Origin: a virus
Lineage: Duplodnaviria > Heunggongvirae > Uroviricota > Caudoviricetes
Direction: 5' to 3' (one strand)
IMG/VR virus record: IMGVR_UViG_3300035210_000151
Length of the DNA: 64,000 bases
Shown here: piece after piece, positions 709-63,384 of the stretch
Position numbering within the stretch: position 1 is the first letter of the stretch
Layout: every line of letters begins with the position of its first letter
Notes under the pieces: generated by a model
Database searches by the model: none
Told to the model about the DNA's origin: nothing
What the model saw: only the letters and a program-made list of their open reading frames with translations
Position numbers and translations under genes: made by a program

Positions 709-1479
709 ATGACTGATAAGTCAAAGCATATGCGAATGTTATTGGATATCGTTAATCGAGACTATATCAATTGCGAAAAAACAATTTATCAAAATGATAA
801 ACAATGTGAACAGATAGATATTTGTGATAATGAATCTATTGATTATGGTCACATTAAGTTAGTTTTAAGTCCTTTTAATATCAATGGAGATCTTGAATTA
901 TTTATTGAAGATGAGCATTGCAATCATATTGATTCTTTTAGATCTAGACACTTATTTTATCATAATAGTCACTTTGATTCTTTTTTTAAAGAAAATTTTA
1001 CTGTCTATGATAATGAAGCATCTATTGAAATGGTGAAGGAATACGTCAGTAAAATATCGAATTTTATTCATGAATTTCCTTCCCAAAATATAGGAAAAAG
1101 ATCAATTGAACATAGAAGTATAATAAATAACATTGATCATTGTTTAAAATTGTTTACTGTTCGTAAGTTTATTAGTTCTACTGAAATACAAGTTGAATAC
1201 AATATTTGTTTGTCTTTAAGAGGAACTAAATGGAATTCTCATTATTCTAATCATGTGTTCGGAATCTCAATTGAAAATGGCATTATTACGAAAGATTTTA
1301 AGAACAAAAACACTCCTTTAAGTTATTTTTCAATTGATGACTTGGTATATAAAACATTTTTTACACTTCATCCAAGGATGGATACTTTTGAAAACAATAC
1401 GTTTAATGGAACAAAACCTCCATTTACAAAAGACGTGTATGATTCTATGATTATTGTGGATGAGATGCATATAATTTGA
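709..1479 (+). CDS. Hypothetical protein with C-terminal Met(-4) tag
   Basis: AGGAG RBS, 256 aa, ends IIVDEMHII. Confidence 0.75.
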   Translation: MTDKSKHMRMLLDIVNRDYINCEKTIYQNDKQCEQIDICDNESIDYGHIKLVLSPFNINGDLELFIEDEHCNHIDSFRSRHLFYHNSHFDSFFKENFTVYDNEASIEMVKEYVSKISNFIHEFPSQNIGKRSIEHRSIINNIDHCLKLFTVRKFISSTEIQVEYNICLSLRGTKWNSHYSNHVFGISIENGIITKDFKNKNTPLSYFSIDDLVYKTFFTLHPRMDTFENNTFNGTKPPFTKDVYDSMIIVDEMHII

Positions 1480-1508
1480 TTGAAAAAAAAATAGGTGTCT
1501 GCTATACT
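1480..1508 (+). promoter_or_regulatory. sigma70-type promoter
   Basis: TTGAAA-17 nt-TATACT with TG extended -10. Confidence 0.6.
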
Positions 1509-1548
1509 GCTTTTATATAGTATTATTGATAAACTTAGAGGAATTATA

Positions 1549-2352
1549 ATGATTGATCTACAACAAAAGCTAGTTAAAAACTCAATGATTTTTGATAAAA
1601 AGACGTTGTTTCAACGAAATACTAAACTGACAGAAGAGCAGGGCGAACTGGGTGAAGCCATTGTGCTTGACGACCGCTCAGAAATGCTTGAAGAAACCAT
1701 TGATACCTTACTGGTTGCCGTGTCTATTCATCTTGATCTATCAGATGATTTTGACAGCTTAAATACAATCATTGCTAATGCTTTTAGTGAAAAGCGTTCA
1801 TATCAAATCGAAAAAATTCATATGGGATTCATTACTTTGACTGGTTATGTTGGTCGTTTCGCAGAAGCGATTCAAAAATATTCAGGAGTTGCCACTAGCT
1901 CTTACAAGGGTAAGGTTTCAAAGGAAGATGTGCTTGCAAGAATTGATACTGTTATTCAACAATGTGCTGTTTTGATGAATATGCAAACCAGTGATCATGA
2001 TATTATTAACGAAATTATTTTGAGAAAAAATGAGAAATGGTTGAAACATGCTAGAAAAGGTTTTATTCTTGCTGACGTTAATCAGGCTGTGAATGTTGAA
2101 AAAGGTTCACCTGTCCTCAATGAGATTCGAGAACAAATGAAATCAATGGATGAAGTTAACCCTATATTTATGGATTACGAACAGATTTCACATCGACTTA
2201 GTAATATTCAAGATATTGACCATGTGGTTCATATTGATGAACAATACAATGACAAAAAAGATATTCTTGTTCTGAGCAACGTTCCGTTATTCGTTGCTGA
2301 TAAATTGTGTAAGTATAACTCTCGTTTTAAAATTGTTTCATTTGTTAAATGA
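1549..2352 (+). CDS. MazG-like NTP pyrophosphohydrolase domain protein
   Basis: KLTEEQGELGEAI...EETIDTLLV MazG-type acidic motif; degenerate second repeat GYVGRFAEAIQK; start moved to ATG after GAGG. Confidence 0.6.
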   Translation: MIDLQQKLVKNSMIFDKKTLFQRNTKLTEEQGELGEAIVLDDRSEMLEETIDTLLVAVSIHLDLSDDFDSLNTIIANAFSEKRSYQIEKIHMGFITLTGYVGRFAEAIQKYSGVATSSYKGKVSKEDVLARIDTVIQQCAVLMNMQTSDHDIINEIILRKNEKWLKHARKGFILADVNQAVNVEKGSPVLNEIREQMKSMDEVNPIFMDYEQISHRLSNIQDIDHVVHIDEQYNDKKDILVLSNVPLFVADKLCKYNSRFKIVSFVK

Positions 2353-2455
2353 TAAAATGCTATAACACTAGATTTTTCGAAAATATTGTGTTATAATTTG
2401 CACGCAAGAAAAATGTTAATAAAGCGTAACATCAATAAATCTAAAGGAGATTTTA

Positions 2456-60880: not shown

Positions 60881-61666
60881 TTATTTCATCACCCTATCAA
60901 AATCCCTGAATGTTTTATTAACCTCTGTGTTATATGCGGTTCTTTTACCTCTCTTATACTCTTGCATTAGACGCTCGTTTGTAACAGATACACTGAAATA
61001 TTCTGATGGTTTTGACATTTTAGAATTATCACCACCTTCTGGTGTATCAATATTGACAATCATATCATCTTTAATAAACTGGTTATTTTGTTTATACCAT
61101 GTAGACAGGGATTTATACCCATTATTATTCAAATAATTATAGGTTCTAGCTGTTAGATATTCTTTTTGTTGTTCTCTATCAAAGTTTTCTTTATATTTCG
61201 ATTCTTGATATTTCGTTTCAAGAACGATTTTGTATAAGTAACCATTACCAACTGTATAGGACACTTTGTAATTTTCTGTCTGTATAGTTTGTGTACTAAA
61301 TGGGACGTTTGTGTAAATTCTCAAAAAACTAACATCACCGACACTGGATAGAGCTATATTACCGATCCTTAAAAAATTGTTTTCATCAATTTCTGTTAAA
61401 TTAATTCGGCTAGCTTTATAATTGAGATTATTGTTTAGTAAAACCGCATCTGGGTTTTTAGTTTTGTTGATGGCGATTTCAAATGCGTCTACTTTGCCAA
61501 TTTTACTAATCATATCAGTGAAACTTGGTGAAAAGTTTAACCCATTAGTAGCGTCTTGATAACCAATAGCATCTTTATTTACATAATATACTGGTTTTTC
61601 TTCTGCATAAGCAAAACCTAATGTCATCATACCAACGAACAAACCTAATAGTAGTTTCTTTAACAT
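60881..61666 (-). CDS. Exported hypothetical protein, paralog of 61764-62474
   Basis: Start moved to MLKKLLLG after AAGGAG; AIGYQD...F.PS, YKVSYTVG.GY.Y shared. Confidence 0.75.
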   Translation of the reverse strand: MLKKLLLGLFVGMMTLGFAYAEEKPVYYVNKDAIGYQDATNGLNFSPSFTDMISKIGKVDAFEIAINKTKNPDAVLLNNNLNYKASRINLTEIDENNFLRIGNIALSSVGDVSFLRIYTNVPFSTQTIQTENYKVSYTVGNGYLYKIVLETKYQESKYKENFDREQQKEYLTARTYNYLNNNGYKSLSTWYKQNNQFIKDDMIVNIDTPEGGDNSKMSKPSEYFSVSVTNERLMQEYKRGKRTAYNTEVNKTFRDFDRVMK

Positions 61667-61763
61667 TTTTTGCTCCTTTAAAAGTTGGTGGAGTATACTG
61701 TATCTGTTAGAAAATGTCAAAACAATGTTAAAAAAAGAGGCCGAAGCCTCTTTGATTAACGAT

Positions 61764-62474
61764 TTATTTCAAAAATGAATCAACTTCTTTAAAATTTGAT
61801 TTAATGTCTTTACTGATGGTCGTATCAAATCGTGAAGCCATCTCTTTGTTAATTTCTTCATCAAAGATAGTAACCACTACACCGTTATTTCGGCCTTGAT
61901 ATTCAGATGTCACCACAACAGTGATGTCACCTCTTTTATAAATATTATTTTTAACAAACCCCATCATTTTCTTCACTTCTTTAAAACCATTATATTCTAA
62001 ATAACGAAGGACTTTATCATTCAGAAAGGCTTGTTGTTCTTCAATGGAAAATTTTGGGTCATATTTTAATACAACTTCTGCACCATAAAAATAGCCCGCA
62101 CCTACGGTATAGCTGACTTTGTATTTGTTACTGTTAAATTCGACAATTTCACTGTCTTGTGTTGGAATTGTATAAACATTCGCTTTATCGGTGATTGTTA
62201 CTTTGATATTGTCTTTCACTTTATCTTTGATATTAATACTGACGGTTGGCGGTGTGGCTACTTCTACAGTTGGTCGTTTACCAAAGCCCTTTGTAATTTC
62301 TGTCAATGAGGGTGGGAAGCCTTCACCATTTTGTGTGTCTTGATAACCTATAGCCGCATTTGGGTCATAGTTGAGAGGAAACTCTTTAACTTCTTTAATA
62401 CCACCACTGGTTGAACCGATGGCAACTGCTGACAACATCATGACTGCAAGACCTACACCTAGTTTTTTTAACAT
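61764..62474 (-). CDS. Exported hypothetical protein
   Basis: Signal peptide; AIGYQD, YKVSYTVGAGY. Confidence 0.75.
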   Translation of the reverse strand: MLKKLGVGLAVMMLSAVAIGSTSGGIKEVKEFPLNYDPNAAIGYQDTQNGEGFPPSLTEITKGFGKRPTVEVATPPTVSINIKDKVKDNIKVTITDKANVYTIPTQDSEIVEFNSNKYKVSYTVGAGYFYGAEVVLKYDPKFSIEEQQAFLNDKVLRYLEYNGFKEVKKMMGFVKNNIYKRGDITVVVTSEYQGRNNGVVVTIFDEEINKEMASRFDTTISKDIKSNFKEVDSFLK

Positions 62475-62619
62475 GAAGGTAATCCTCTCTTTAGAATTTG
62501 AACTACTATATTACCTAATTATTGTGAAAAGTCAAATTTTTGAACATCTTTACACCCTTATATTTTCTTTGATTCATTAACTTTTTTATGGTATAATCCA
62601 TGAAATCAAAAAAGGGTGA

Positions 62620-63384
62620 ATGACTATGTTTGACTTCATTATTATCTATGTTTACAAAATGGCTAATATTTTACTGTATCCTTTCGTAAAACTGAAATTT
62701 TCCATGCTAGGTGTTGAGTCTGTTAATCAAGAATTTGTTGCATTAATGCGTAAAGTGTGTGTCCAAGGAAGTTTTCACCATTCTTTTGAGAATACTTATG
62801 TTCTTTATGATCTTTTTAATGGTGTTTATTTTAGAGAAAATAAGTACAACGAACATGTATTATCAGCATCAAAATACCATGATAAAAAAGGCACAATGAC
62901 TATTCATCGGCTTGAACTTAAAAACATCAAATCATTTGAACGTTTTTGTAATGATGTTAAAAACAATTATTCCTCTATTAGTGAGCGGTGGACACTTAAT
63001 TATAAAGACAAACAAATTAATAGCATTGTTTGCACATTGAATATTATTCCAGATAATATCAATCATAAAAATCGTAAGATTGATGCTATTAAAATGGGTA
63101 TTGTTTTTGACCATGAATTTAATGTAGTGAGTATTGTTAAACAATATTTCGTTACCATACGCTCTAAACATGGCGATGACACCTTTGAACAACCAGTTTA
63201 TACATCCAGTATGAATGAAGAGTTTTCACTGGATACTGAGCTGTTGTTGATTAAGTTGGCGATAGCATCAGATAACTCGCCATTGATTGATATGTTTCCC
63301 GAGTATTATATACCTACTGTCTATGATTATTCCTCTGTGGAATTTGAACAACGATTAAAACTTTTTGAAATGGTTGATTATTAA
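62620..63384 (+). CDS. Hypothetical protein with Met(-4) tag
   Basis: Ends FEQRLKLFEMVDY; upstream TGGTATAAT. Confidence 0.75.
   Translation: MTMFDFIIIYVYKMANILLYPFVKLKFSMLGVESVNQEFVALMRKVCVQGSFHHSFENTYVLYDLFNGVYFRENKYNEHVLSASKYHDKKGTMTIHRLELKNIKSFERFCNDVKNNYSSISERWTLNYKDKQINSIVCTLNIIPDNINHKNRKIDAIKMGIVFDHEFNVVSIVKQYFVTIRSKHGDDTFEQPVYTSSMNEEFSLDTELLLIKLAIASDNSPLIDMFPEYYIPTVYDYSSVEFEQRLKLFEMVDY

Follow-up and report, generated by a model that had tools for sequence, protein, structure and literature searches.

A C-terminal helix with a near-invariant methionine on roughly one in five or six proteins of an uncultured phage-like lineage: a candidate hyper-diverged orphan family

The window analysed here is a stretch of 64,000 nucleotides from a Caudoviricetes virus (IMG/VR record IMGVR_UViG_3300035210_000151), and its subject is a short C-terminal element, hereafter the tail, in which a helix of 15 residues places a methionine four positions from the end of the chain (-4). 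Tailed proteins, or carriers, make up about a quarter of the genes of the window and roughly one gene in five or six across the related genomes. The interpretation that we favour, and to which we give an even chance, is that the carriers form one lineage-specific, hugely expanded and hyper-diverged orphan family whose terminal helix serves as the common handle for an invariant partner. Three parts of this interpretation are inferred: that all carriers descend from one ancestor, that the helix docks, and that a single reader exists. No published description of the tailed family was found in the literature, and what is new is an undescribed family with no match, for the members searched, in Pfam, PHROGs, PDB, AlphaFold DB, ESM Atlas or BFVD. 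Finding the source of the constraint on the tail would give a role to about 100 orphan genes per genome at once, and would show how such elements organise a large, fast-diversifying and probably host-directed protein repertoire.

Abundance of the tail and the genes that carry it

An earlier reading made from the sequence alone (the sequence-only reading) had listed 23 carriers in the window, and the translations agree with it: methionine lies at -4 in 20 of them and at -5 in the other three. The window is AT-rich (G+C about 32%) and tightly packed with genes, and a longest-ORF heuristic, with start codons that are likewise heuristic, yields 87 non-overlapping open reading frames (ORFs) of at least 50 amino acids. 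Methionine occupies -4 in 21 of these 87 ORFs against a background frequency of 2.6% (binomial P about 1e-13), and the chain-end pattern hydrophobic-x-x-M-x-x-hydrophobic is seen 20 times where 0.31 would be expected from its internal frequency. By BLAST, nine of the 23 carriers form subfamily A and four form a membrane group; four more fall into two pairs, and six stand alone. Once the tails are removed, they spread over 11 of the 61 body clusters of the window (Poisson P about 1e-15), so the enrichment is not explained by paralogy or by a single tandem array.

The tail was followed in three relatives, namely G001, L001 and the close relative L003, with a 100-kb sample of phage G as control. 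G001 is a related IMG/VR viral contig of 437,043 bp, analysed over its full length, that may be a piece of a larger genome despite a CheckV completeness of 98%. In it, 102 of 599 ORFs (about 17%) have methionine at -4, and carriers occur in all 20-kb bins. The tail was also found to be common in G001 when it was scored against internal positions with a 15-column position-specific scoring matrix (PSSM; threshold 10 bits), a check on relatives of the kind that had been proposed along with the original list. Orthologs in L001 and L003 retain their tails. In the phage G sample, methionine is at -4 in 2 of 95 ORFs and there are zero tail PSSM matches, which shows that the tail is specific to this lineage and not general to AT-rich huge phages. 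A profile of 64 tails gave no match at E<=0.001 among 1.84 billion representative proteins, a search that says nothing about distribution since the profile is too short for a database of that size.

The carriers of the window are the following (lengths in amino acids, aa; TM, transmembrane segments; bits refer to the tail PSSM).

709..1479, plus strand: singleton carrier, 256 aa, tail IVDEMHII, 13.8 bits
9163..9870, plus strand: membrane carrier with 4-5 predicted TM, tail KILKMYAIY, Met at -5, 22.8 bits at offset 1
9903..10613, plus strand: membrane carrier with 4-5 predicted TM, tail EIMTMYAFN, Met at -5
10622..11245, minus strand: carrier, 207 aa, tail LLTEMVKI; body clusters with G001 336422-337009
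11312..12127, minus strand: subfamily C carrier, tail ALDEMIKI, 18.0 bits
12228..13046, minus strand: subfamily C carrier, tail SLHRMTNI, 13.8 bits
22690..23484, plus strand: subfamily D carrier, tail DLISMYLI; the ORF opens at 22636, and 22690 is an internal ATG and the likely start
24416..25201, plus strand: subfamily D carrier, 261 aa, tail DILSMYLI, modelled with AlphaFold2
32917..33807, minus strand: ninth subfamily A paralog, 296 aa, tail LLVEMVKI, 21.2 bits
33843..34529, minus strand: singleton carrier, 228 aa, tail LVDEMQKI; L001 and L003 orthologs tailed
35057..42823, minus strand: eight tandem subfamily A paralogs of about 300-317 aa each, all tailed (e.g. LVEMVKI), 14.9-23.1 bits; members at 35057-35974, 36034-36969, 36984-37925, 38029-38982, 39055-39960, 39994-40914, 40943-41869 and 41894-42823
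51436..52146, plus strand: singleton carrier, 236 aa, tail DVFDMTVI, 15.0 bits
57002..57613, minus strand: membrane carrier with 2 predicted TM, tail KVAEMYSIQ, Met at -5; last 66 aa align to 9163-9870
57629..58240, minus strand: membrane carrier with 2 predicted TM, tail KIAEMYSI
60089..60829, minus strand: carrier, 246 aa, tail KILKMFYI; its counterpart on a related contig is about 26% identical, and its body-cluster partner, G001 258344-259048, ends IIVKMLVI
62620..63384, plus strand: carrier, 254 aa, tail KLFEMVDY

Anatomy of the tail and level of selection

When one representative is taken per body cluster (n=65), information above background is confined to the last 15 residues, and the background level is reached beyond position -16. 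There is an excess of acidic residues at -15, -12 and -11; the sequence-only reading had described an acidic helix ahead of the motif. Hydrophobic residues stand at -13, -9, -7, -6 and -3, Glu or Lys at -5 (a variable position that also takes Asn, Ser and His), methionine at -4 and Ile or Tyr at -1. The helix is amphipathic and about 60% hydrophobic, and in many members it is immediately preceded by an S/T-x-x-D/E helix cap. No shared N-terminal motif was found, positions 2-21 of the same 65 representatives being at background under the heuristic start calls.

The distance of the tail to the chain end is tightly held. The PSSM matches 95 C-termini, 91 of them at offset 0 and the other 4 at offset 1, against 9 of 136,680 internal positions, and extensions of 2-27 residues beyond the tail are absent from these 95 termini. 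When the methionine column is omitted, 94 termini still match where 1.2 would do so by chance, and methionine is present in 87 of the 94, the remainder having Ala, Ile, Leu or Ser. This conservation is exerted on the protein, as had been concluded from the synonymous variation: the codons vary freely at their wobble positions and, at -7, also at the first position, and nothing is conserved 3' of the stop codon. A signal at the DNA or RNA level was rejected on account of this free wobble, the lack of a downstream motif and the ordinary spacing to the next gene.

The comparison with L003 gives the rates of change. Carriers have a mean identity of 78%, against 93-98% for those untagged neighbours within the syntenic block that are enzymes, and the ratio of nonsynonymous to synonymous divergence (dN/dS) is about 0.16 in carriers, 0.02-0.05 in those enzymes and 0.15-0.21 in other orphans. 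Within carriers, dN is 0.035 over the last 15 codons and 0.129 in the body, with no lowering of dS in the tail; in the singleton at 33843..34529 the values are 0 and 0.094, respectively. Constraint is about fourfold stronger on the tail than on the body, and the bodies evolve fast or under relaxed selection, though not freely.

Departures from the tail consensus were also recorded. A possible extra member of the window (17893..18462, plus strand) ends NLLMLSALTL, with Ala in place of Met, and scores 7.2 bits on the PSSM without the methionine column. Ile replaces Met in three genes that lie among carriers in G001: 229169-229921 (LEIVID), 232897-233673 (LRIKYT) and 233666-234502 (IEIIDFS). The methionine ending is lost in G001 273571-274281 (plus strand), a paralog of the 62620-63384 group that ends RLKLANIL.

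Predicted structures of two subfamilies

Confident AlphaFold2 models were obtained for two subfamilies. The model of subfamily A (39994-40905, from an alignment of 31 sequences) has a mean predicted local distance difference test score (pLDDT) of 86.5 and a predicted template modelling score (pTM) of 0.85, with the terminal helix at residues 288-302; that of subfamily D (24416..25201, 17 sequences) has a pLDDT of 85.5 and a pTM of 0.84, with the terminal helix at residues 246-260. Both follow a common order of elements. An N-terminal helix, four strands, two helices and a strand-short helix-strand stretch are followed by about four more strands, a short helix, a long helix, a short helix and the terminal tail helix. 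A three-state DSSP secondary-structure alignment of A with D scores 283.5, compared with 156.8 +/- 26.5 for shuffled element order (4.8 standard deviations). Exhaustive alignment of the models to 48,161 PDB representatives returned 19 chains common to both top-50 lists, which align to corresponding model regions, for instance frataxin CyaY (A 105-269, D 76-224) and the C-terminal domain of T4 MotA (A 4-202, D 1-163). These shared neighbours show that the models of A and D are alike, but do not tell which fold they have.

This likeness is invisible to profile comparison: hhalign of the A and D profiles aligns the tail alone, with a probability of 0.07%. Because A and D are alike in the models and blank to hhalign, negative results from sequence cannot exclude common descent elsewhere among the carriers. 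The case illustrates how structure prediction can recover family membership where profile methods are blank, and it leaves the claim that the tail sits on unrelated families without support; no convincing carrier has a Pfam domain, either. The sequence-only reading had itself stated that it would fall if all bodies proved to be one remote family, and this has come about at least in part, through the two modelled subfamilies.

Neither model found a significant relative in PDB Foldseek, AlphaFold DB clusters, ESM Atlas, BFVD or an exhaustive VIA search (Z at most 5.5 and 6.1). Weak matches in these searches were to cystatin-like or PepSY-like modules, the double-wing C-terminal domain of T4 MotA and frataxin-like folds, and an ESM Atlas look-up of 11315-12121 gave no usable match. 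A complex prediction of an A protein with a D protein, addressing tail-to-tail association and run without controls, scored 0.00, a value that speaks neither for nor against such an association.

Length, domain content and membrane members

Carriers have a narrow length distribution, with an interquartile range of 217-287 aa compared with 109-265 aa for the remaining proteins. Among 102 G001 proteins with methionine at -4 or -5, only three match Pfam (E up to 0.001), whereas 102 length-matched non-carriers yield 62 families. Two of the three, with NUDIX and DEDDh_C domains, were set aside as chance matches on account of weak tails and untagged paralogs; the third, a dCMP-deaminase that was not pinpointed to a protein, was assumed to be chance as well. 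Ten window carriers gave nothing above noise with Pfam (E up to 1) and PHROGs. Conversely, among the Pfam-domain proteins that were scanned or annotated, MYG1, PcfJ, M48, Pirin, RNase T and metallophosphatase are all untailed, in keeping with the earlier remark that recognisable enzymes lack the tail. A borderline case is the DUF7275/DUF7277 protein at 48582-49568 (plus strand), which ends VLKHMIAA and scores 10.7 bits as part of the PSSM training set. Its homologue in phage G, gp205, has a different ending and no tail; the protein is either a chance match or the sole carrier from a known family.

Most carriers are soluble and some are multi-pass membrane proteins, as had been noticed. Between 1 and 5 TM segments are predicted in about 20 of the 130 carriers of the window and G001, where they replace the soluble N-terminal part, and by BLAST the 2-TM and 4-5-TM carriers have only their last ~66 aa in common.

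Interpretation of the tail and its rivals

Common descent would explain where the tail came from, but not why the tail alone stays frozen. The near-invariance of the methionine, together with a chain that stops three residues on (four in a few members), points to an invariant external constraint, for example a single reader of the free C-terminus; a near-invariant Met pinned at the chain end of otherwise unrecognisable bodies is the signature of one shared constraint. On the favoured interpretation, the typical member would be soluble and about 250 aa long, beginning with an alpha+beta module, continuing with a second module of helix-sheet-helix type and ending in three helices, and in a minority of members 2-5 TM helices would substitute for the N-terminal part. 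The bodies would drift past sequence recognition while the last 15 residues stay as an amphipathic helix, obliged to end three residues past the methionine. Such a helix might act as a fixed docking or capping element read by one invariant partner, and the variable bodies would give differing specificities.

Several results weigh against this interpretation. Body homology was not detected when the last 25 residues of the 130 carriers were removed: they form 98 phmmer clusters, which three profile rounds reduce to 96. Smith-Waterman scores between carriers of different clusters average 39.5 against 38.4 after shuffling (their slight excess over non-carriers is compositional, with Phe at 8.3% versus 5.9% and little Ala or Gly), and the hhalign scores of 1,500 carrier-carrier pairs match those of 1,500 carrier-noncarrier pairs. 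The structural comparison covers two of about 96 body clusters, which were compared through element order and shared PDB neighbours and not by superposition, and those neighbours all lie at Z 3.9-6.1, a generic alpha+beta resemblance. The TM carriers indicate more than one fold, at any rate in the N-terminal half. The pLDDT of 81-86 for the tail in both models would fit a helix that packs on its own body. Finally, no reader protein was found in G001 among the candidates examined, namely a clamp, S41, ClpP-like and M48 proteins. In particular, the sliding-clamp models PF00712, PF02768, PF02916 and PF09116 have no match in this record, which may be a genome fragment, and no S41 protease is present. 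A weak ClpP-like match was discarded as a reader since it turned out to be the head maturation protease, itself untailed.

A docking, addressing or degron role of the tail, as first proposed, is plausible as far as the sequences go, and the docking idea would survive a common origin of the bodies. In a specific form, which we regard as tentative and clearly less probable than the favoured interpretation, the tail would be an address label: one dedicated reader would bind the free C-terminus with Met at -4, and would thereby anchor, load or hand over about 100 different, fast-evolving proteins per genome. Candidate readers of such a label could be a hub ring, the shell of a capsid or compartment, or a protease or unfoldase. 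If true, this would give viruses of prokaryotes an equivalent of the F-box/PRANC-type adaptor libraries, built on an undescribed fold, in an element with relatives on contigs as large as 1.9 Mb.

It is unlikely, in our judgement, that the tail needs no outside partner at all, the carriers being one family in which no other part of the fold tolerates change as poorly as the terminal helix, for example because this helix closes the hydrophobic core. The architecture common to A and D agrees with such plain homology, and in both models the helix, with its 60% hydrophobic content, is part of a compact monomer of high pTM; so greasy a helix left free on about 100 soluble proteins would risk aggregation. 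What this explanation leaves unaccounted for is the selectivity of the constraint. All other core positions have drifted, yet the methionine is not swapped for Leu, Ile or Phe beyond the few exceptions given above, although intramolecular contacts could co-vary. Likewise, in 95 members the chain runs at most one residue past the helix, when C-termini are normally free to vary, and the membrane-anchored members hold the helix without the N-terminal module.

Somewhat more doubtful still is a portable tag, that is, a 15-residue helix that was repeatedly joined to independently arisen proteins and takes them to one scaffold, protease, capsid or compartment common to all. The blank outcome of BLAST, phmmer, iterated hidden Markov models, Smith-Waterman and hhalign on tail-less bodies, which upholds the earlier statement that they have no visible similarity, would be expected of such a tag. 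The occurrence of the motif on soluble, 2-TM and 4-5-TM proteins, in which the TM classes resemble each other only near the C-terminus, and its strictly terminal position, as in known C-terminal sorting signals, would be expected as well. However, the predicted architecture shared by A and D renders the missing sequence similarity uninformative. Moreover, a portable tag should occur on recognisable enzymes, and the near-absence of Pfam domains from carriers, set against the 62 families of the non-carriers, speaks against this, as do the narrow range of carrier lengths and the borderline standing of the DUF7275 protein as the sole candidate from a known family.

Improbable among the explanations weighed is a degron or processing site, by which the tail would have proteins trimmed, or removed at a set time, by a protease of the host (AAA+ or tail-specific) or of the phage (M48 or head maturation). 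Degrons of this kind, such as the ssrA tag, are short, hydrophobic and strictly C-terminal. An M48 gene lies in the window, directly upstream of two tagged membrane proteins:

58355-59323, minus strand: M48 (HtpX/Ste24-type) peptidase gene, directly upstream of the tagged 2-TM genes 57629-58240 and 57002-57613

G001 also encodes an M48 protein, together with AAA ATPases and the head maturation protease, but there the M48 gene (82559-83209) is not beside carriers, and the tail-specific S41 protease is missing; besides, the variable residue at -5 leaves no T4-like L-x-E cleavage site, and a 15-residue helix is longer than known degrons require.

Resemblance to known systems

The tails that bind the sliding clamp in T4-like phages are comparable in that a short hydrophobic stretch at the very end of the chain docks several different proteins to one hub. 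The DNA polymerase gp43 of phage RB69 ends SLFDMFDF in the phage record, and its Leu at -7, Asp at -5, Met at -4, Phe at -3 and Phe at -1 reproduce the core pattern of the carriers. It differs from them in scoring 2.9 bits on the carrier PSSM, where the threshold is 10, and in the absence of the upstream helix; a score this low implies that the likeness goes no further than the bare hydrophobic pattern. The T4-like proteins gp33 and gp55 also end in clamp-binding tails, which makes about three such proteins per phage, versus about 100 here.

Poxvirus ankyrin/PRANC and F-box proteins resemble the carriers in forming large, fast-evolving, lineage-specific families in which variable bodies are combined with a constant C-terminal part. 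Their PRANC and F-box domains are recognisable units of about 40-50 aa that bind Skp1, sit on repeat-protein bodies and plug into one host machine. The carriers, on the other hand, have a 15-residue terminal helix on novel predicted alpha+beta bodies in a prokaryotic system, and no F-box or PRANC domain was found in ten window carriers (Pfam, E up to 1) or in 102 G001 carriers (E up to 0.001).

A third comparison concerns short terminal peptides that load unrelated proteins into a shell of HK97 fold, such as the cargo-loading peptides of encapsulins, the C-terminal tail of the HK97 protease and the capsid-targeting sequence of T4. The T4 tag is N-terminal (~10 residues, with an L/I-x-E end), whereas the carriers show no N-terminal conservation. 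In addition, these peptides serve a handful of cargo proteins and not about 17% of a proteome, the head protease of G001 is untailed, and membrane-embedded carriers are unlikely cargo.

The carriers share with large-virus paralog expansions, and with the Tpr proteins of Theileria, many dispersed or tandem copies, fast divergence and a family definition that relies on the C-terminal region only. The Tpr proteins are described as a hypervariable multigene family whose conserved C-terminal part defines it (PMC10730637). In families of the Tpr type a whole domain remains recognisable, while in the carriers 15 residues persist, fixed to the chain end.

Source genome and other observations

The window belongs to an uncultured genome of huge phage-like type, whose real size we leave open. 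A contig of 391 kb carries proteins identical to those of the window, and window genes recur in near-identical form on contigs of 604 kb, 773 kb and, in three cases, 1.85-1.92 Mb, from different samples; one of these large contigs, L004, measures 1,917,244 bp. The element may therefore greatly exceed 391-437 kb, or the 1.85-1.92 Mb assemblies may be concatenated or chimeric. A Shine-Dalgarno-like G-rich signal precedes genes in both the window and G001, for which reason the system is read as prokaryotic. The DUF7275 protein of the window is matched best by proteins of Brevibacillus phage Sundance and Bacillus phage G.

Among the genes of G001 is one for a head maturation protease (phrog_53, E 9e-34), from which it follows that the lineage makes a capsid; Terminase_6N and tail-sheath models have no match in this contig. 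Its gene content further includes a tyrosyl-tRNA synthetase, DnaK, an M3 oligopeptidase, an NAD-dependent ligase and a fusion of a major facilitator superfamily transporter with an acyltransferase (examples of this content lie at L030:5189-6130, L016:2807-4705 and L030:11051-12307), and none of its ORFs is longer than 778 aa.

A different conserved tail (C-M-L-x-K/H-L-K/N-L-K) ends three tandem paralogs of about 250 aa at 20285-22585 of the window (minus strand), which are related to the N-terminal part of a 523-aa protein at 13052-14623 (plus strand). An internal match to the carrier motif in one of them, 20285-21025, was discarded since its paralogs do not keep the methionine.

ARAGORN finds 26 tRNAs dispersed in G001. 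For two of them, at L025:15947-16020 and L026:9162-9237, it reports an amber-reading anticodon, CUA, and an anticodon of four bases, agaa; TAG remains a stop codon in 5 of 65 carrier genes. An array of Ser and Tyr tRNAs lies at 26385-27658 of the window, and G001 has a similar Ser/Tyr cluster that runs from L019:19558 to L020:424.

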